Of a DNA stretch of 64,000 nucleotides, positions 4,830 through 60,387 are shown piece by piece (within the stretch, counting starts at the first letter, position 1; every line of letters begins with the position of its first letter). Below the pieces are notes generated by a model, which worked only from the letters and a program-made list of their open reading frames with translations, ran no database searches and was not told the origin of the DNA. The position numbers and the translations under genes are program-made. Origin of the DNA: Candidatus Aenigmatarchaeota archaeon (GTDB lineage Archaea > Aenigmatarchaeota > Aenigmatarchaeia > QMZP01 > QMZT01). The stretch spans positions 861,795 to 925,794 of the forward strand of contig CAVSBQ010000002.1 of the NCBI GenBank assembly GCA_963726265.1, given 5' to 3'.

Positions 4830-5609
4830 CTATTTTCCGTTTATAACGGTTCCCAGGCCCTTTTCACCCAGAAGCGAGCGCCTGAGAAGGCCGGGCTTCA
4901 GGCCGTTTATTATCTCGACCTCGGTTCCCATGGCAAGCGCCATCCTGACTTTCTGCATCATCCCTCCGGTCACGTCGGCGATCCCGTCCGAGGAAGAAAG
5001 CGACTCGGCTATTTCCCTGAAGTTTTTCCTGTCAATCGCCCTTATTTTTTCGCCGAGCGGGCCGAGCACACCATCCGTTTTTCCTGCCATTATTATCCTT
5101 TCCGGCTTCAGCTTCCTCGCGAGGAAGCGCAGTATCTCCTCGGTCGAGATTATGCAGCAGCCCTTCGCCTCGTCGAGGCACGCGTCGCCGTATGGGACGG
5201 GTATCGCGCCTTTCGCGAGCAGGGTCTCGAGCGGCCTGGTATGCCATTCCCTTATGCTGTCGTTCTTCGCGAAGCAGGACGCGGATGGCTGTATCGAAAC
5301 GGCGTTCTCGCCTGCCTCGAGCAGCGATGATACGATAATCCTGTTGAGCTTCGCGGCGTCGTCCTGGACTCTGGCGAAGCCCTCCCAGCTCTTGCTGTTT
5401 ATGACGCCTTTGTGGGTCTGGTATTTGCTGGCCGAGACGTGCGGGAAGCTGCCGCCGCCGTGGCCGACGAGAAGCGCGAACTTCCTTTGCGCTCGCGCTT
5501 CGCGTATCTCCCTGCAAAGGCGTTTTATCACATCGTATCTCGCGGTATACGGCTTCGACTTGTCCGTTATCAGCGAGCCGCCCAGCTTGACGAATATCAG
5601 ATTTTTCAT
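4830..5609 (-). CDS. ipk: isopentenyl phosphate kinase (amino-acid-kinase fold)
   Basis: MKNLIFVKLGGSLITDK...LLVGHGGGSFPH...IISTEEIL...GKTDGVL...DVTGGM, the hallmark IPK pattern; adjacent to fni. Confidence 0.85.
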   Translation of the reverse strand: MKNLIFVKLGGSLITDKSKPYTARYDVIKRLCREIREARAQRKFALLVGHGGGSFPHVSASKYQTHKGVINSKSWEGFARVQDDAAKLNRIIVSSLLEAGENAVSIQPSASCFAKNDSIREWHTRPLETLLAKGAIPVPYGDACLDEAKGCCIISTEEILRFLARKLKPERIIMAGKTDGVLGPLGEKIRAIDRKNFREIAESLSSSDGIADVTGGMMQKVRMALAMGTEVEIINGLKPGLLRRSLLGEKGLGTVINGK

Positions 5610-5654
5610 AGTTAAAATTGCAAACCTTTATTTAAATTTGAAACAAGTACTCTC

Positions 5655-5999
5655 ATGGACGCGAAAAGGGAATGCCTCATTTCACTGAATGCGTATCACA
5701 GGCTTTATCCGGGCAGCTTCTTCGGCAGGCCGCTGAAAGCGAGAGAGCTCAGGGACGCGGGAAACTCGCTCGTTTTCGCCGGTTTCGGGGCGCTCGCGCC
5801 GCTTGCAAAAGAAAATAAGGATTTCTTCGTCATACTGCGGCTTATAGACCAGAACGTCGAGGACTTTTTCTGCATGCTCGCCTCGGGAGACATGAAGCTT
5901 TTCGCGTGCAGGTTTGACGATGCGAAGAAAGCCGCTGACAAAAAAGCGCTTGAGAAGTTCGGGAAATATTACATGGAAGAGAAGAAGAAGCTTCGCTGA
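5655..5999 (+). CDS. hypothetical protein (114 aa) embedded in the mevalonate-pathway cluster
   Basis: ORF with reasonable codon usage. No recognisable motif. Its first 19 nt are identical to the start of the MGMT-like gene at 3064. Confidence 0.35.
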   Translation: MDAKRECLISLNAYHRLYPGSFFGRPLKARELRDAGNSLVFAGFGALAPLAKENKDFFVILRLIDQNVEDFFCMLASGDMKLFACRFDDAKKAADKKALEKFGKYYMEEKKKLR

Positions 6000-23011: not shown

Positions 23012-23599
23012 ATGAAACTCGAGCTAAAAATAGTGGATTTGCTGGCCAGAGACATAGAAAAGAAATTTACAATTAATGAGATAGCAAAAGCTCTGGAAGA
23101 GTACTATTCCTTTGTCCACAGAACTGTCAATAAGCTAAACAAAGACGATGTAATAATCAAAGAAAAAGCTGGCAAATCCTATCTTTGCTCATTGAATGTG
23201 ACGAATGAGAAAACAATGGCATTAATGCAGTTAAGCGAAATTGAAAAAAGGGGTGAATTTTTAAGCCAGAATAAAGAGTTGAAGCTAATTTTGGAGGATT
23301 TTGTCAAAGCCGCAGAAACGCAGGTTGATGCAATTTCTATCGTTCTGTTCGGGTCTTATGCCAAAGGCACAGCAACAAAGGAAAGCGATATTGATATCTT
23401 GCTGATAAGCAGAGGCAAGGCAGGAATTGACAAAATAACAAAAGGTATGTATGCAAAATACGGAAAGGAGATTAGCACAATAATAATGACCCCCGATGAC
23501 TTCAAAAAACAGAAAGATAAGGCTGTAATCAAAGAGATTATAAACAACCATTACATACTCTACGGGGTAGAGAAACTTGTAAACATGGTGTTCAAATGA
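23012..23599 (+). CDS. nucleotidyltransferase-domain protein with N-terminal winged helix (MntA-like antitoxin of MNT-HEPN pair)
   Basis: VLFGSYAKGTATKESDIDILL minimal-nucleotidyltransferase motif (GS…D.D). AT-rich. 4-nt ATGA overlap with the downstream HEPN gene. Confidence 0.7.
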   Translation: MKLELKIVDLLARDIEKKFTINEIAKALEEYYSFVHRTVNKLNKDDVIIKEKAGKSYLCSLNVTNEKTMALMQLSEIEKRGEFLSQNKELKLILEDFVKAAETQVDAISIVLFGSYAKGTATKESDIDILLISRGKAGIDKITKGMYAKYGKEISTIIMTPDDFKKQKDKAVIKEIINNHYILYGVEKLVNMVFK

Positions 23600-24162
23600 G
23601 AGCGAAAGACATAATCACAAGGGCGATGAAGCGGGCCAAAGAAGAAAGAGGCCTTAGAGTGTCAAGGCCAAACGATTATCTAAGCGATGGCCATATCAAG
23701 AAAGCAGACCACAATCTGATTGTTATGACGGATTTGAACAGGCTCGGGCATGAGGATTGGGTCGTAATTTCTGCCTATTATGCAATGTACCAGTCTGCTA
23801 CGGCATTGCTTGCAAAAATAGGGCTGGAAAGCAAGGATCACGCCACAACCGCGGCCGTTCTGGAATACCTTTTCGGCGAGCAGATAAGCAAAGAACTGAT
23901 AGGAAAGTTCAACGAGTTGAAAGAAAGGATTGAAACAATAACCATGGATGAAAAATACATCGACTATTTGTGGAAAACCAAGAGAGCAAGGGAAACTGCG
24001 CAATACGGCATTTCCATAAGCCACAAAGAAACTGATACCATTATGAGAAACGCAAGGGAGTTTGTGAGCAAGATAAAGCTGATGTTAAGTGAACTGAACG
24101 AAAAGCTGGTTGCGATTATCGGCAAGGAGATAGAGGAATTGGAAGAGATATCAAGAAAATGA
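23596..24162 (+). CDS. HEPN-domain protein (HepT-like partner)
   Basis: All-alpha 188-aa protein translationally coupled to the nucleotidyltransferase gene. Canonical Rx4-6H not obvious; RARETAQYGISISH is the closest, so nuclease activity is uncertain. Confidence 0.6.
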   Translation: MRAKDIITRAMKRAKEERGLRVSRPNDYLSDGHIKKADHNLIVMTDLNRLGHEDWVVISAYYAMYQSATALLAKIGLESKDHATTAAVLEYLFGEQISKELIGKFNELKERIETITMDEKYIDYLWKTKRARETAQYGISISHKETDTIMRNAREFVSKIKLMLSELNEKLVAIIGKEIEELEEISRK

Positions 24163-35741: not shown

Positions 35742-36143
35742 GTGAGTAAGCGAGTGCGTATTTCTATGGCTGAGTGCGAGGTCTGCGGCAAGGAGTCCGC
35801 GAACAAGCGAGCCGAGATAGACGGCGTCATTCTCGAGGTCTGCGACAACTGCGTGAAGCTCGGCAAGGAAGTCGCCCCTCCAAGACCCATTTTCATCAGG
35901 CAAGCAGTCGCGAAAACTCCAAAACCAGAGTCCATCGAAAGCGAACGCGAGCTCGCAAGCGATTTCTCAACACGAATAAGAAAAGCGCGAGAGCAAAGGA
36001 ATCTCACCCAGGACGAAGCAGCGATGAAGATGGGCATCTCCCATCTTATTTACAAGCGCATCGAGGGCGGCTTCAAGCCCGACGACTCAACAGCAAAAAG
36101 GCTCGAGAGGTTTTACAGCATCGAGCTGTATGCGAAGAACTAG
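35742..36143 (+). CDS. mbf1: multiprotein-bridging factor 1 homologue (zinc ribbon plus Cro/C1-type HTH)
   Basis: CEVCGKE…CDNC zinc ribbon followed by …RIRKAREQRNLTQDEAAMKMGISHLIYKRIEGG… HTH_XRE. Confidence 0.75.
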   Translation: MSKRVRISMAECEVCGKESANKRAEIDGVILEVCDNCVKLGKEVAPPRPIFIRQAVAKTPKPESIESERELASDFSTRIRKAREQRNLTQDEAAMKMGISHLIYKRIEGGFKPDDSTAKRLERFYSIELYAKN

Positions 36144-36172: not shown

Positions 36173-36796
36173 ATGAATAAAAATAAACAAATAAAAAATA
36201 AGGTTTCTGAACTACAGCGATCCGTTCATATAGTCAATGAAAAAGGCTTTTTTAAAGACCCAATCAGGGTATCAAATATTCTCACTTCCGTATTGATTAT
36301 TGTTACAATATCTTCAGTAATTGCTACTTGTGGTATCATTTCTCTAACTAGATCTCTTGAAAATACACGACAGAAAGAGCTAATTGTTTCTAAAGTGCAA
36401 TTTGTCGATAAGCTCATACTTGAACTAAAGGAAAACGAGGGCAAATTGGAACACTTAAATAAAAGTCTCGATGAATTTAGGGATAATAACGCCAACCCAA
36501 TCGATACAATTTCGATTGTTATGTTAGAAAATTCGTTTGATTTTATAGATGATAAAGAATTAGTTCAAGATATATTCGCATATTTGACAGGGTTTAGGCT
36601 ACTGAAAAAAGACATTGAATATCTCCCAGTCGGAGATATGATAGTTAAAAATGATACAATAACTAAAACACGAGACAACCTTAACGGCTTATTGGCTGGA
36701 GCCAAAAATTATGATGGCCACGTGATATATGGCATTTCCAAATTAATTGAAAAATTAGAAAGTTATAAATCTAAATTAGAAAATCAATCATTGTAA
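36173..36796 (+). CDS. hypothetical membrane-anchored protein encoded by an AT-rich (about 33% GC) gene
   Basis: Strong compositional contrast with flanks. One predicted TM helix (ILTSVLIIVTISSVIATCGIISL), coiled-coil rest. Confidence 0.4.
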   Translation: MNKNKQIKNKVSELQRSVHIVNEKGFFKDPIRVSNILTSVLIIVTISSVIATCGIISLTRSLENTRQKELIVSKVQFVDKLILELKENEGKLEHLNKSLDEFRDNNANPIDTISIVMLENSFDFIDDKELVQDIFAYLTGFRLLKKDIEYLPVGDMIVKNDTITKTRDNLNGLLAGAKNYDGHVIYGISKLIEKLESYKSKLENQSL

Positions 36797-36799
36797 TTT

Positions 36800-36858
36800 T
36801 TACTCCCCAACCACCTGCACCACTATCTCCCTCTCCCTCGGTCTCGTATCGAGGTCGC
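36800..36858 (-). other. displaced duplicate of the 3' end of the yjbQ-family gene (encodes …DLDTRPREREIVVQVVGE-stop); direct repeat copy 1
   Basis: Reverse-strand translation of 36800-36858 parallels the real YjbQ C-terminus …DFDTRPRNREIVVQIIGD-stop at 37666-37725. Nucleotide identity is about 80% over roughly 40 bp. Confidence 0.55.
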
Positions 36859-36895
36859 GCCAATAAAACGAAATTAACTTTATAAACCACTACTA

Positions 36896-36980
36896 CCTAT
36901 AAACTTATAGGTATATAGAGATAAATGAACAGTGAAAATCCGTTCATGCTAAGTGAACATTTTGTTCATTTATGATGAAC
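36896..36980 (+). promoter_or_regulatory. cluster of inverted repeats upstream of the putative TA operon: CCTATAAACTTATAGG (36896-36911), ATGAAC-N11-GTTCAT (36925-36947), TGAACATTTTGTTCA (36954-36968), GTTCAT-N5-TGAAC (36964-36980)
   Basis: Read directly from sequence. Recurring TGAAC/GTTCA half-sites suggest a dimeric repressor operator. Confidence 0.4.
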
Positions 36981-37001
36981 AGTTAAAGATAGAAAAGAAA
37001 T

Positions 37002-37343
37002 ATGCAAAAGAATATGCTCGCGCATGCCCAAGCTGCGCATGGCAGGGGAAGCGAGAAGGAATGGCATATAGAATTCAGCTGCAAGGTGGCGCATTACCCG
37101 AGGCTCGACACGGTCATCATGGTAGCGGAAGCCATAAAGAAGATAGGTCCGTGCACGAAGACCGAACTTTCAAGGAAGCTGAAGAAGGAGGTAATGTGGC
37201 CTACGCTGACCGTGATACTGGATTATTTCGAGACCATGGGCTTCATCGTCAAGGACAAGGCAGGAAGGATAGTCTGGATATACAATCCCGAGATGGTCAG
37301 GAAGTATGCGAAGAGAAAGGATCTTGAATGGAAGCCAAGATAA
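37002..37343 (+). CDS. putative antitoxin/regulator with winged-helix-like region
   Basis: 113-aa basic protein (…MVAEAIKKIGPCTKTELSRKLKKEVMWPTLTVILDYFETMGFIVKDKAGRIVW…). Overlaps the downstream RelE-like gene by 16 nt. Confidence 0.4.
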   Translation: MQKNMLAHAQAAHGRGSEKEWHIEFSCKVAHYPRLDTVIMVAEAIKKIGPCTKTELSRKLKKEVMWPTLTVILDYFETMGFIVKDKAGRIVWIYNPEMVRKYAKRKDLEWKPR

Positions 37344-37657
37344 TATTTGCCGACAAAAAGCTGAAAGAAGAATACGAGTCGCTTGAGCACAGCGCGGAAT
37401 TCGGCTGGCTTTACAAAGCGCTTAACAGAGCGTTCGCTGACATAATGGATAAGCCTTCCATCGGCGTACCGCTCAAGAAAAACAGGATACCGAAAGACCT
37501 AGCACGCAAAAAGATAGACAACATCTGGAAATACGATTTGCCAAGCGGATGGCGACTTTTGTATTCGCTTGGCCGTGAAGGCATAACGATAATAGCGCTT
37601 GTTCTGGAGTGGTGCGACCACGACGGTTATCAGAAGAGATACAGTGGCAGGAAATAA
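37328..37657 (+). CDS. RelE/ParE-fold (YoeB-like) putative toxin
   Basis: IIFADKKLKEEYESLE…KPSIGVPLKKNRIPKDLARKKIDNIWKYDLPSGWRLLYSL…ITIIALVLEWCDHDGY matches RelE/YoeB secondary-structure order and conserved aromatic/basic positions (…W+Y.L..gWRllY…lvL.w..H..Y). Confidence 0.5.
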   Translation: MEAKIIFADKKLKEEYESLEHSAEFGWLYKALNRAFADIMDKPSIGVPLKKNRIPKDLARKKIDNIWKYDLPSGWRLLYSLGREGITIIALVLEWCDHDGYQKRYSGRK

Positions 37658-37665
37658 GATGCTTT

Positions 37666-38082
37666 TCAGTCTCCGATTATTTGCACTACTATTTCCCTAT
37701 TACGCGGCCTCGTATCGAAGTCCAAAAGAGCGATTTGCTGCCACGTGCCTAACAGGAGCTTGCGGTTCTCAAAGGGGACTGTGATGCCCGGCTTCATGAG
37801 GCATGCGCGGACATGCGCGCTGCCGTTGTCGTCGTGCCATGTTTTGTGATGCTCGTAATCTGCGCCTTCTGGGGCGATTTTGTTTAGGGCGCGCTTGATG
37901 TCCTTGATGAGGTTTGGTTCGTATTCTAATGTCGAGATGGAAGCGGTCGAGCCGCTGACGAAGACGCAGGCTATGCCTGACTTGATTTTGGACTTGCGAA
38001 TGATGTCTGCGACTTCTGCCGTGATGTCTATGATGTCCGTCGCGCCTTTCGTGCTGACTGAGAACCTTGAAGTTTCCGCCAT
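37666..38082 (-). CDS. YjbQ/UPF0047-family protein (secondary thiamine-phosphate synthase-like fold)
   Basis: From internal MAETSRFSVSTKG…DIIDITAEV…CVFVSGSTASISTLEYEP…ADYEHHKTWHDDNGSAHVRACLMKPGITVPFENRKLLLGTWQQIALLDFDTRPRNREIVV. The longer upstream extension in the ORF track is unlikely to be real. Confidence 0.75.
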   Translation of the reverse strand: MAETSRFSVSTKGATDIIDITAEVADIIRKSKIKSGIACVFVSGSTASISTLEYEPNLIKDIKRALNKIAPEGADYEHHKTWHDDNGSAHVRACLMKPGITVPFENRKLLLGTWQQIALLDFDTRPRNREIVVQIIGD

Positions 38083-38138
38083 GATGCCCACGTCAATTAA
38101 TAGGAAGCAAGGAAATAATAAAATATGGAGCGACACGC

Positions 38139-39303
38139 ATGGATGTTGAAAAAGTTGAAAAAGCGGTGGACGCGCAGAAGGCCGGGATGATAAAGCTTCT
38201 TTCTGACCTGCTGGCAAGGAACACGGCCAACCCGCCCGGCAACGAATTCTTCGCGGCAGAGGTCGTCAAGGAATTCTTTGAAAGGGAAAAAATAGCATAC
38301 AGGATTTTCGAAAAGCAGAAGGGCCGTTCGAACATAATCGGTTATATAGGCAAAGGGAAGCCGCGCCTGATTATCGCCTGCCACATGGACACGGTCCCGG
38401 CTGGCGACGGATGGAAATCGAATCCTTTCCGTGCGCGAGTTGAGGGCGACAGGATTTATGGACGAGGCGCGGTCGACAACAAAGGCCCGCTGGCTGGCAT
38501 GCTCATCGCAGGCAAAATCCTCAAGAGGCTCGAGCCATCGCTTCGCTGCCAGGTCATGCTCGCCTGCGTCGCTGACGAGGAGATGGGCTCGGAATTCGGG
38601 ATGCGCTACCTGCTTGACAGCGGCCTCGACGCGGAATATGCGATTGTGCCGGACATAGAGCACGAGCTGAAGAAAATCGACGTCGCTGAGAAAGGGTCTG
38701 CTTGTTCCTGAAGGTCACTTCCCTTGGTCGCCAGGCGCACGGCTCGACTCCAGAAGCCGGGATAAACGCCGTCTGGAACATGCTCGAGTTCCTTGCGCTG
38801 CTCAAACGCTACAGGATGCGTTTTAAACGGCATCGTCTGCTTTCGCCGCCCACCATAAACCTCGGGCGTGATAAAAGGCGGGGAAGCGACGAACATGGTG
38901 CCTGCCGCATGCGAGGCGAAAATCGACATACGCTACCTGCCTTCTCAGAAATCTTCAGATATCATAAATGATGTAAAGAAGATGCTCGCGGTCGAGAAGG
39001 AAAAACAGGAAGGCGAGATTCAGGCTTGAAGTGATTGACCATCAGAAGCCCGTCGCCGTCGAAGGCGGCGCGCTGGTGAGGCTGATCAGAAAGCACGTAA
39101 AAGAGGTCACGGGAAACCATGCCGAGCTCATCGGCATCTCGGGGACGACGCTGGTCAAGCCGCTGGCCGAGAAAGGGATCGTCGCAGTGGGCTTCTCGCC
39201 CGGCAAAGGCCTTGCGCATACGGCGAACGAGTTCATCTCCATCGCCGAGCTCATGGCCTTCGCGAAGATACTGTGCCTGGTCTGCCTCGACCTTTCCGCT
39301 TAG
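38139..39303 (+). CDS. M20-family metallopeptidase (ArgE/DapE/CPG2-like), fragmented into three frames
   Basis: 38139-38711: …IIACHMDTVPAGDGW…GRGAVDNKGPLAG…ACVADEEMGSEFG. 38702-38971: …LKVTSLGRQAHGSTPEAGINAV. 39031-39303: …GISGTTLVK…VAVGFSPGKGLAHTANEFISI. Frame changes near 38700 and 38960-39030. Confidence 0.65.
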
Positions 39304-59642: not shown

Positions 59643-60011
59643 ATGGGAGACAGGATAAAAACCAAGAACGGCGAGGTATGGGTGGAAGGCGAAATCCTGA
59701 TGATGAAGATGTCAGGCGAGATAGAAGAGGATGAGATGAAAGAGATTGCGAGAATTAACATGGACATGATCAAGAAATTCAAATTGAAATACGTCCTGGT
59801 GGTTTCGGATGTCACGAAAACGTCTTTCGACGCAAGGCAGATGGCATCCAATTTTAACCTGGACCCGATAAAAAAAATAGCCATGATATGCAAAAACCCC
59901 GTGACCAGGATCATCGCCTCGTTCTTCATGCGAAAATATGCGTTAACGATACCGACCAAGCTTTTCTCCGATACCGAGGAAGCCAAGAAATGGTTAAGGG
60001 AGGGAAAGTGA
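59643..60011 (+). CDS. STAS/SpoIIAA-like small protein, paralogue 1
   Basis: 122 aa. About 45% identical to the next gene (…GEVWVEGEILMMKMSGE…KKFKLKYVLVVSDV…ICKNPVTRIIASFFMRKY…EEAKKWL). Confidence 0.5.
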   Translation: MGDRIKTKNGEVWVEGEILMMKMSGEIEEDEMKEIARINMDMIKKFKLKYVLVVSDVTKTSFDARQMASNFNLDPIKKIAMICKNPVTRIIASFFMRKYALTIPTKLFSDTEEAKKWLREGK

Positions 60012-60012
60012 C

Positions 60013-60387
60013 ATGGAAAAAGTAAAGTTAAAAAACAGCGAAGTATGGGTGGATGGAGATATACTCATGATTAAAATGTCGGGCGAGGCGACGTATGAAG
60101 AGATGGACGAAATCACGAACGCGAGCGCGGACCTGGTCAAAAAATTCAAACTGAAATACATCCTGGTGGACTCGGACGTCAGAAAGATGTCCTTGAGCGC
60201 GAGAAAAAAGAATTTCACTTACGTGGGAGCAGTAACAGTGGAAAAAATAGCCTTCATCTGCGCCAATCCGGTGACCCGAGCCATTGCCATGTTTTTAGTT
60301 AGGGGATACAAATTGGAGATACCGGTCAGGCTTTTCTCGAATGCCGAAGATGCCAAGAAATGGTTCAGTGAGGAGAAAAAGGCATGA
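60013..60387 (+). CDS. STAS/SpoIIAA-like small protein, paralogue 2
   Basis: 124 aa. Tandem duplicate of the preceding gene; 2-nt spacing. Confidence 0.5.
   Translation: MEKVKLKNSEVWVDGDILMIKMSGEATYEEMDEITNASADLVKKFKLKYILVDSDVRKMSLSARKKNFTYVGAVTVEKIAFICANPVTRAIAMFLVRGYKLEIPVRLFSNAEDAKKWFSEEKKA

Follow-up and report, generated by a model that had tools for sequence, protein, structure and literature searches.

A displaced yjbQ 3' end and a putative toxin-antitoxin cassette point to a hot spot of gene-cassette turnover in Aenigmatarchaeota

Introduction

The lambdoid phage 21 and the element e14 integrate into the 3' end of icd in E. coli and bring replacement codons for that gene, and the additive genomic islands and tycheposon-like arrays at tRNA genes arise by successive insertions that leave partial 3'-end copies behind. 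Here, we analyze a related arrangement in a 64,000-nucleotide stretch of DNA from Candidatus Aenigmatarchaeota archaeon (assembly GCA_963726265.1, contig CAVSBQ010000002.1, positions 861,795 to 925,794; the whole stretch is called the window in the following), where a putative toxin-antitoxin (TA) cassette lies between the 3' end of an intact yjbQ gene and a displaced second copy of that end. In the best reading of the data, gene cassettes turn over repeatedly at a hot spot in this Aenigmatarchaeota clade (DPANN archaea), namely at the junction where yjbQ meets MBF1, a gene convergent with it.

Two further systems described in the literature bear on this locus. C-terminal displacement and orphan arrays occur in Rhs, contact-dependent inhibition (CDI) and type VI secretion system (T6SS) effector loci (PMC5361080; Jackson et al., 2009, as cited there), and homology-facilitated illegitimate recombination was suggested as the route to the orphan arrays in Rhs/T6SS loci (Kirchberger et al., 2017, PMC5361080). 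Integron gene cassettes have been reported in archaea, metagenome-assembled genomes (MAGs) of Aenigmatarchaeota included (Ghaly et al., 2022, PMC9668308). DPANN archaea depend on hosts and have tiny genomes. Knowledge of gene acquisition and exchange in these archaea is very limited, and the yjbQ locus provides a sequence-level record of this process.

Results

The last codons of yjbQ occur twice

The yjbQ gene and the two copies of its 3' end are arranged as follows:

37666..38094, minus strand: intact UPF0047/YjbQ gene, 142 amino acids from the ATG at 38094, 3' end evidently replaced
37666..37725, minus strand: live 3' end of yjbQ, last 19 codons and stop, evidently of foreign origin
36800..36858, minus strand: displaced, evidently native yjbQ 3' end, 18-19 codons and stop, untranslated remnant

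The PF01894 profile matches the gene product over its whole length (E=1.1e-35, profile positions 1-117 of 117, YjbQ residues 23-139 of 142), which argues that the live copy is the functional C-terminus of YjbQ and that the imported end completes the domain. YjbQ orthologues from Aenigmatarchaeota MAGs share 60-86% identity and the synteny M20-yjbQ-MBF1. Exact look-ups of the YjbQ and toxin proteins of the window matched no contig, and the context of the window locus was taken from homologue loci (L numbers in the following), these MAGs providing the best yjbQ loci.

The live end encodes ...LDFDTRPRNREIVVQIIGD-stop, the protein C-terminus being ...LLDFDTRPRNREIVVQIIGD-stop, and the remnant encodes RDLDTRPREREIVVQVVGE-stop on the same strand. 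The original prediction, made by a model from the sequence alone, that the C-terminus of YjbQ recurs as a diverged copy at 36800-36858 is confirmed. Both stretches belong to a single family of 60-nt direct repeats (36797-36856 and 37663-37722, spacing 866) with 44 of 60 positions identical (73%), and both copies terminate exactly at the stop codon. In 300 Markov-1 sequences of 64 kb with the dinucleotide make-up of the window, the best ungapped match to the live 60-mer amounted to 31.0 ± 1.1 positions with a maximum of 35, and this control rules out a repeat that arose by chance. The second-best real match to the live 60-mer within the window is 31. A longer tandem duplication of yjbQ, put forward together with the prediction as its possible refutation, can be dismissed since homology is limited to the 57-60 nt before the stop codon. 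Further yjbQ fragments were not found within the 64-kb window. The remnant lacks an upstream reading frame, stop codons being present 11 codons upstream. The two copies agree at every position of a 10-nt stretch, TCGATACGAG (37712-37721), the likely crossover zone through which the live end was imported.

Origin of the live end and of the remnant

In its last 45 nt the remnant shares 89% identity with the live end of yjbQ in L085, which is among the two relatives closest to the window (86% identity over 2.3 kb), whereas the window's own live end reaches only 63-69% identity with L085 over the last 90 nt. Identity of yjbQ to the closest relatives is 0.93-0.96 and decreases to 0.63-0.69 in the last ~70 nt; the GC content at third codon positions (GC3) is 0.60-0.80 along the gene, followed by 0.53 and 0.38 in the final two 45-nt blocks. 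Nearest relatives are discordant between the body of the gene and its last 60 nt. For the 117 nt upstream of the repeat these are L167, L085, L001, L089 and L165 (0.88-0.90), while the last 60 nt show only 0.63-0.72 identity to L085, L001, L089 and L165. The match of the last 60 nt to L167 is 0.90, this locus sharing the insertion by descent, and the best match after L167 is the cassette-bearing L081 (0.82), to which the upstream part is only 0.72 identical.

A constrained live end that is far from its relatives, combined with a neutral remnant that is close to them, shows by sequence comparison that the live end is evidently foreign and the remnant native. The earlier proposal that the original end was displaced as a silent remnant when a replacement end was brought in is borne out by the identities to L085. 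Transposon-type target duplication, in which both copies stem from one resident sequence, does not describe the locus: target-site duplication followed by drift is ruled out because the divergence pattern is reversed, the live copy being ~3x more diverged than the remnant, and because the composition is shifted.

Empty and occupied yjbQ/MBF1 junctions

The conserved gene order of the region is metallophosphoesterase, M20 peptidase and yjbQ, followed by the convergent MBF1 gene and the gene for a 381-amino acid protein. On the MBF1 side of the remnant the window contains:

35742..36143, plus strand: MBF1-type helix-turn-helix (HTH) gene (HTH_3, E=6e-9), convergent with yjbQ, far border of the hot spot
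36173..36796, plus strand: AT-rich open reading frame (ORF) of 207 amino acids between remnant and MBF1 (GC 0.31, GC3 0.26)

Empty sites, which the original prediction had suggested to look for in related genomes, were found in seven distinct loci (L003, L004/L093, L104, L092, L095, L007 and L019), where the stop codon of yjbQ overlaps that of MBF1 by 4 nt or stands 0-18 nt away from it. In eight distinct loci the site is occupied by inserts of 966-6282 bp; that of the window measures 1522 bp. Comparison with the empty sites of relatives thus shows that the cassette region is an insertion and that the cassette and the 207-amino acid ORF are both inserted DNA. Size polymorphism, the lack of which was named as part of a possible refutation, exists even within one metagenome: yjbQ of L089 (1841-2017) and L165 (5891-6067) is 98.6% identical until 34-37 nt before the stop codon, and beyond this point terminal codons, cargo and downstream DNA are unrelated.

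The 207-amino acid ORF is absent from the empty sites and from L167, L081 and L165, where other genes fill its place (5.4 kb of them in L167). It is not similar to the gene in the equivalent place of L081, and no match was obtained in Pfam, PADLOC, NCBIfam or PHROGs. Judged by this distribution, the ORF probably stems from another insertion into this hot spot, one that was separate and earlier.

Recurrence with other cargo and serial remnants

Displaced yjbQ ends stand beside other cargo in at least five other loci (collagen-like, LAGLIDADG, Bro-N, HNH and Fic). Occupied sites contain:

L002: collagen-repeat protein; remnant of 13 codons
L005/L094: LAGLIDADG_3 and HTH protein; remnant of 20 codons
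L013: Bro-N protein; 71-nt repeat with 3 mismatches
L085: HNH_3 endonuclease and two small genes; remnant with internal stop
L081: cassette, SoFic-like gene and methyltransferase; degenerate remnant
L001: EamA transporter; occupied, remnant undetected
L086: PDC-S01-type ATPase and small membrane protein; occupied, remnant undetected
L091: cluster of small predicted DNA-binding proteins (read from the sequences); occupied, remnant undetected

In L005 the remnant peptide is the same as the C-terminus that is live in L004, a relative with an empty site, and the live end of L005 resembles another lineage. Between L167 and the window, identity amounts to 88.8% in the 3.2 kb that run from the remnant through the phosphoesterase gene, and to 98.5% at the MBF1 end. 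As both have the same remnant-spacer-cassette junction, the insertion predates their split. The orthologous remnant of L167 is more decayed (RDLDSQPREREVVVQLVGE), and a second displaced yjbQ end, FDTKSRDIEIVVQVVGE-stop, follows in the same orientation ~2.8 kb beyond the first (remnants at 2759-2815 and 5605-5665). The second remnant is the older one, and the pair forms a serial array of displaced ends. The remnants are separated and followed by AT-rich cargo (GC 0.28-0.36), and the 5.4 kb of AT-rich cargo in L167 comprise DUF4365, YdjM, zinc-ribbon and unknown genes.

Remnants of genes other than yjbQ adjoin the cassette as well. In L081 (1558-2641) the SoFic-like gene is placed between the live methyltransferase 3' end and a displaced copy of it (KITSVKVSARK-stop, 2606-2641). 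In L165 (5101-5143; also L166, 302-344) an MBF1 fragment, RIESGFEPDDSTAK, abuts the TATA box of the cassette 176 nt past the live MBF1 stop codon, and a yjbQ remnant is absent there. The methyltransferase and MBF1 remnants indicate that the architecture is not tied to the yjbQ sequence. The methyltransferase of L081 is also found in L002, on the other side of the yjbQ remnant.

Counted from the stop codon, breakpoints or repeat limits are located at about -57 in the window and in both L167 remnants (R1 and R2), at about -40 in L002 and L085, at -34/-37 in L089 compared with L165, at -63 in L005 and at -71 in L013. One crossover site for all events, the fixed core that site-specific integration implies, was not found. 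Directly upstream of their remnants L002 (10788-10859) and L085 (3723-3796) have a stretch in common (82% over 74 nt), which resembles a conserved arm on the side of the element.

In a pilot scan that covered 1.7 Mb of the loci, more short copies of the last 11-25 codons of genes turned up a short way downstream of the intact gene. Candidates for displaced ends in other archaeal MAGs are:

L151: 5623-5697
L102: 3179-3226
L044: 19795-19857 and 17493-17534
L009: 13091-13132

The cassette in other genomic contexts

The cassette proteins of the window and L081 are 90% identical, compared with 75% for yjbQ, 70% for M20 and 68% for the phosphoesterase, and the cassette is present in at least eight genomic contexts. 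Together, the excess of identity over the neighboring genes and the number of contexts show that the cassette is mobile and, as far as can be read from its distribution, horizontally transferred. Lack of TA homologues elsewhere, which would have spoken against the original prediction, is thereby not observed. The cassette stands beside yjbQ in four lineages (window, L167, L081 and L165/166), and further contexts are Fic genes (L082/83), a HAD hydrolase (L084), the vicinity of pdxS/T (L172), a SnoaL gene (L173) and a position after a Rad51-like gene (L174/175). A more distant pair resides inside the Mbh-type hydrogenase/Mrp cluster of a different archaeon (L168-L171; ~7943-8523 in L168). Its antitoxin and toxin are 81% and 54% identical to those of the cassette, and the toxin yields weak YhaV and RelE_StbE matches. 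Among the viral contigs of IMG/VR neither cassette protein has relatives and the degenerate yjbQ-end pattern has no match, which leaves a viral carrier of the cassette unsupported.

The cassette encodes a candidate toxin-antitoxin pair

Between remnant and live yjbQ end the following features are present:

36859..36873: junction spacer between remnant and cassette, common to L167, not to L081 or L165
36874..37001, plus strand: predicted promoter/operator region, 128 nt
36879-36886: TATA-like TTTATAAA
36894-36913: perfect palindrome with 9-bp arms, TACCTATAA-N2-TTATAGGTA
36926-36981: four exact TGAACA sites in 56 nt, compared with 45 in the whole 64 kb
37002..37343, plus strand: candidate antitoxin/autorepressor, 113 amino acids, winged HTH at residues ~35-102, N-terminus disordered
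37328..37657, plus strand: candidate toxin, 109 amino acids, RelE/ParE superfamily, closest to YoeB
37658..37665: spacer of 8 nt between the convergent toxin and yjbQ stop codons

The operator-like palindrome cluster and the two-gene module of winged-helix and RelE/YoeB-fold proteins were already part of the original prediction and are recovered here between the repeat copies. The description of this segment as markedly AT-rich throughout applies to the intergenic part (GC ~0.33-0.36); it does not hold in this form for the two genes, which have a GC content of 0.47-0.50 as against ~0.55 in their neighbors. The gene that is truly AT-rich, 36173-36796, is located outside the two repeat copies.

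The cassette has the layout of a type II TA operon, i.e. two small co-oriented genes that overlap (by 16 nt), a predicted DNA-binding protein and a palindromic operator at the promoter. In the AlphaFold2 (AF2) model of the candidate antitoxin the predicted local distance difference test score (pLDDT) is above 88 over residues 31-100, the topology is helix-helix-helix-strand-strand as in winged-helix proteins, and Foldseek matches are the winged-helix domains of IclR, MarR, TubR and AspA. We collected 52 homologues, and in the contexts read a RelE-like gene always follows downstream. The TATA box and the palindrome are kept in every cassette context, L082-84 included, with the palindrome ~25 nt downstream of the TATA box at the presumed transcription start. 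The TGAACA cluster is confined to the window and L081, its absence from L167 corresponding to a ~58-nt indel, and is therefore regarded as an accessory feature. On the basis of the model and the operator, the winged-helix protein is most likely both the repressor of its own promoter at the TATA-proximal palindrome and the neutralizer of the toxin: by binding the palindrome it would repress the operon, and it would also hold the toxin inactive. The 8-nt spacer at 37658-37665 differs completely from its counterpart at 6411-6419 of L167 (GATGCTTT vs AACCGAGTT), the flanks being ~90% identical and the structure inherited.

The AF2 model of the candidate toxin (pLDDT 80.5, predicted template modeling score (pTM) 0.72) exhibits the compact alpha/beta fold of RelE with N-terminal helices packed on a 3-4-stranded antiparallel sheet. 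The top 40 Foldseek matches in the PDB are all toxins of the RelE/ParE type (RelK, HigB2, ParE2, YoeB, RelE including archaeal ones, and YafQ), the top 20 having target-normalized template modeling (TM) scores of 0.58-0.74; they are followed only by three chains of the ribosome-binding effector Cami1. A toxin of 100% identity is present on a contig of 1,105,251 bp. A profile search with the toxin family retrieved 547 relatives (cluster representatives), and among 80 sampled relatives Pfam detects ParE_toxin in 32, YoeB_toxin in 12 and ParE_like in eight. The family profile matches YoeB structure chains with E=8e-5 to 9e-4. At the level of predicted structure, the RelE/YoeB fold proposed earlier for the 37328-37657 product is hence well founded. 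NCBIfam, PADLOC and PHROGs returned nothing significant for either cassette protein, and we regard the cassette as a predicted winged-helix/YoeB-like TA family so far unannotated, with ~550 cluster representatives.

Five residues, W75, R76, Y79, H98 and Y101, reach a conservation of 90% or more among the 80 relatives and may constitute YoeB-like catalytic equipment. By its modeled fold the 109-amino acid protein is probably a ribosome-dependent mRNA endonuclease, which upon loss of the antitoxin would cleave mRNA on the ribosome. Trp27 of the toxin has become a stop codon in two independent lineages, TGA in L165 (5631-5633) and L166 (832-834) and TAG in L084 (9986-9988), and the antitoxin is intact wherever this is the case. 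Independent knock-outs of the toxin next to an intact antitoxin are to be expected if the toxin is harmful, and we infer toxicity, neutralization and autoregulation for this pair. An addictive module of this kind would also stabilize the inserted DNA that adjoins it.

Further observations in the window

The M20 peptidase gene next to yjbQ (38139-39303) is disrupted by three in-frame stop codons at ~38709-38860 and a frame change near 39000; its orthologues are intact in L081 (397 amino acids) and L167 (387 amino acids). Compared with L167, the first 289 residues are 78% identical and the last 103 residues 96%. The disrupted gene could be a pseudogene, a mosaic or the product of assembly indels. 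An AT-rich islet at 23012-24162 (GC 0.36-0.43) carries an NTP_transf_2/Polbeta nucleotidyltransferase gene and an adjacent 188-amino acid ORF. The nucleotidyltransferase has an N-terminal match to the HVO_A0114 family, which we take to be a winged helix, and from its sequence the islet is possibly a TA pair of the MNT/HEPN type. Apart from the yjbQ ends, the window has just one strong C-terminal repeat, at 59643-60387; it is not a remnant and belongs to two whole tandem paralogous genes, for proteins of 122 and 124 amino acids, in an AT-rich stretch.

Discussion

We put forward, with a probability of about 0.6, that recombination through the conserved end of yjbQ brings about a turnover of cassettes at a hot spot between convergent genes and displaces one 3' end after another. 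Ancestrally, the stop codons of yjbQ and MBF1 would have overlapped. Overlapping convergent stop codons leave no neutral insertion point, so that only insertions restoring the gene end survive, and DNA from the occupied hot spot of a relative would supply precisely this end. In the case of the window, a segment of ~0.85 kb comprising the type II TA operon together with a foreign yjbQ end, its last ~45-60 nt, would have recombined in. The crossover would be situated in or just upstream of the conserved D-F-D-T-R codons, at the 10-nt core TCGATACGAG. As a consequence yjbQ would have stayed full-length and now end in foreign, AT-shifted codons, and its native last 57 nt would have been pushed 866 bp downstream to become the untranslated remnant. 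We infer that joining was achieved by the general recombination of the host acting on the short conserved yjbQ terminus and that a dedicated integrase encoded by the cassette was not required. One possible course is that a circular cassette with one yjbQ end enters by a single crossover, the circle being conceivable as the product of recombination between the two repeat copies of a donor. The other is that linear DNA from a related genome is joined by homology-facilitated illegitimate recombination. More tentatively, and with clearly less confidence, the conserved last ~20 codons of a housekeeping gene might serve as the portable recombination site of an integrase-free cassette system in DPANN archaea. 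The cassette would then travel with its own copy of the gene end, insert at the orthologous end by host recombination and displace the resident one. Arrays of selfish and defense genes would thus be built at a convergent pair without intergenic DNA, and the short repeats that flank the cassette at unrelated sites would belong to this process as well.

Several observations weigh against turnover by recombination through the yjbQ terminus or complicate it. A donor of the live end is not among the sampled loci, the best independent match being 78-82% identical (L167 excluded). The exact crossover cannot be placed, because L085, the nearest cassette-free relative, may carry an imported end itself: the apparent switch at about -70 in comparison with L085 is confounded in this way, other relatives match the window to about -57, and L005 and L004/L095 are too divergent from each other for locating a left crossover. 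The 5' limits of the remnants cluster 39-71 nt from the stop codon instead of being spread across the gene, and ~58 nt beside the remnants are common to L002 and L085 despite their different cargo. The promoter-side limit of the cassette falls on the same nucleotide (TTAACTTTATAAAC) in three flank contexts; the far-side flanks differ by lineage (yjbQ remnant, methyltransferase remnant, MBF1 fragment) and the end point of the cassette is constant. A discrete unit is not what random illegitimate joints are expected to produce and hints at a defined mobile cassette with an unknown machinery. Imperfect direct repeats of local sequence also flank the cassette at unrelated sites (23 nt in L082, 38 nt in L084, 48 nt in L172 and 23 nt in L173, all above 200 shuffles; 14 nt in L174, borderline). 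The search for recombinases covered 64 kb of a genome of ~1.1 Mb, and as regards the cargo, the window toxin alone matches Pfam ParE_toxin with E=0.05, below the cut-off.

Some of these points would be accommodated by a site-specific element whose attachment (att) site mimics the yjbQ terminus and whose tyrosine or serine recombinase acts in trans or has since been deleted, the 10-nt core being the site of strand exchange. Such an element would leave the classical attL/attR footprint with a replacement 3' end, and the TCGATACGAG core is indeed located at the 5' edge of the repeat, the distal part being of native origin in the remnant and of foreign origin in the live copy. The clustering of remnant limits (those of the window/L167 R1 and of L167 R2 start within ~3 nt), the element-side arm shared by L002 and L085 and the discrete ends of the cassette point in the same direction. 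However, neither an integrase nor a transposase gene was detected in the window insert, in the eight occupied sites or among 10 further ORFs of the window, in agreement with the earlier statement that no integrase is present, and the ORF adjoining tRNA-Phe encodes the methyltransferase Trm1 and not an integrase. Breakpoints vary (-57, about -40/-37, -63, -71), remnants of other genes (L081, L165) and unrelated repeats bound the cassette such that one att specificity is insufficient, and relatives of the cassette or of the yjbQ end are missing from IMG/VR. We therefore consider this explanation rather improbable. Of the small integrating element in the original prediction, the insertion, the imported end and the TA cargo stand, and a single self-contained att/integrase element does not, given the variable breakpoints and the remnants of other genes. 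A non-autonomous cassette that is moved by an unknown machinery, transposition-like or by replicative template switching, and creates target duplications of 14-60 nt would explain constant ends across contexts and local direct repeats above 200 shuffles at four to five unrelated sites. It appears quite unlikely for the yjbQ locus, where the more diverged and compositionally shifted live copy is at odds with a simple target duplication, no transposase was found in the inserts, and Bro-N, HNH, LAGLIDADG and collagen-like cargo exhibit the yjbQ-end architecture without the ends of the cassette in common.

Homing would be a very improbable source of the architecture. According to this view a free-standing endonuclease encoded at the site cuts cassette-free yjbQ termini, and repair copies in neighboring DNA together with a recoded, resistant end. 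Endonuclease-type cargo directly follows yjbQ in L005 (LAGLIDADG_3) and L085 (HNH_3), and recoded live ends are compatible with self-immunity to cleavage, but the RelE-like toxin is the only nuclease gene in the insert of the window and homing itself does not leave a duplicated end. We give hardly any credence to an internal duplication of the window's own yjbQ end with subsequent drift or to an integron-type attC cassette, although a direct repeat does flank the insert and integrons have been reported in Aenigmatarchaeota MAGs (PMC9668308). The divergence pattern is opposite to that expected from drift, and homology extends over 57-60 nt only. An attC cassette is ruled out by the DNA folds of both copies on both strands, which are no better than those of shuffled sequences (z -0.76 to +1.55); intI was not found, and Rfam gave no match.

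Turnover by recombination through the yjbQ terminus would carry implications beyond this locus. The locus offers empty and occupied states, at least six independent insertions with different selfish or defense cargo, serial displaced ends and strain-level polymorphism. It illustrates how insertion becomes tolerable where two essential-looking genes share their stop codons, namely when the incoming DNA brings a spare gene end. If no dedicated recombinase is involved, this would be a simple and general route of cassette exchange in reduced genomes, and displaced 3' ends would be a cheap computational marker for such hot spots. Should the conserved gene end indeed act as a portable site, the system would correspond in function to an integron or a tRNA-linked island, but operate without a dedicated recombinase.

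Comparison with known systems

The locus extends known kinds of rearrangement, 3'-end-replacing integration and C-terminal displacement arrays, to a poorly known archaeal group. The hallmarks of C-terminal displacement are encountered here: a live 3' end of foreign origin and a displaced native one in the window and L005, and orphan ends in series in L167. Just as in Rhs, CDI and T6SS loci, the incoming DNA is anchored in a conserved part of the gene and provides a new 3' end plus cargo, the old end is shifted downstream, and repeated events give rise to strings of orphan 3' ends without an integrase, two of which are present in L167. In those systems, however, the displaced 3' end is a variable toxin domain with its immunity gene, whereas here a housekeeping UPF0047 gene with a conserved end is affected, the remnant measures 13-23 codons, the cargo consists of unrelated selfish and defense genes and the host is a DPANN archaeon.

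With phage 21 and e14 in icd the locus shares that the target gene is kept intact and that its original end lies silent at the other junction. These elements possess their own integrase and one fixed core, whereas here none was found, breakpoints are variable and inserts are as small as 0.8 kb. A hot spot next to a conserved gene, partial 3'-end copies left by successive insertions and cargo rich in defense and selfish genes are features in common with tRNA islands and tycheposons; the difference is that a protein-coding end at a convergent pair is used here and that an associated integrase was not seen. The resemblance to integrons concerns small cassettes that carry a promoter or are promoterless, often contain TA modules and are arrayed at one site. 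Unlike in integrons, there is no attC-type fold, IntI or attI at the yjbQ locus, and the repeat is the coding end of a gene.

The module itself resembles YefM-YoeB and RelBE in its antitoxin-first two-gene operon with overlapping genes, the palindromic operator and a toxin of the RelE/ParE fold, in which Arg76, His98 and Tyr101 appear to take positions comparable to Arg65, His83 and Tyr84 of YoeB. The antitoxins of those systems belong to the Phd/YefM or RelB (ribbon-helix-helix) type, whereas that of the cassette is a predicted winged-helix protein, and neither cassette protein reaches a curated family threshold.

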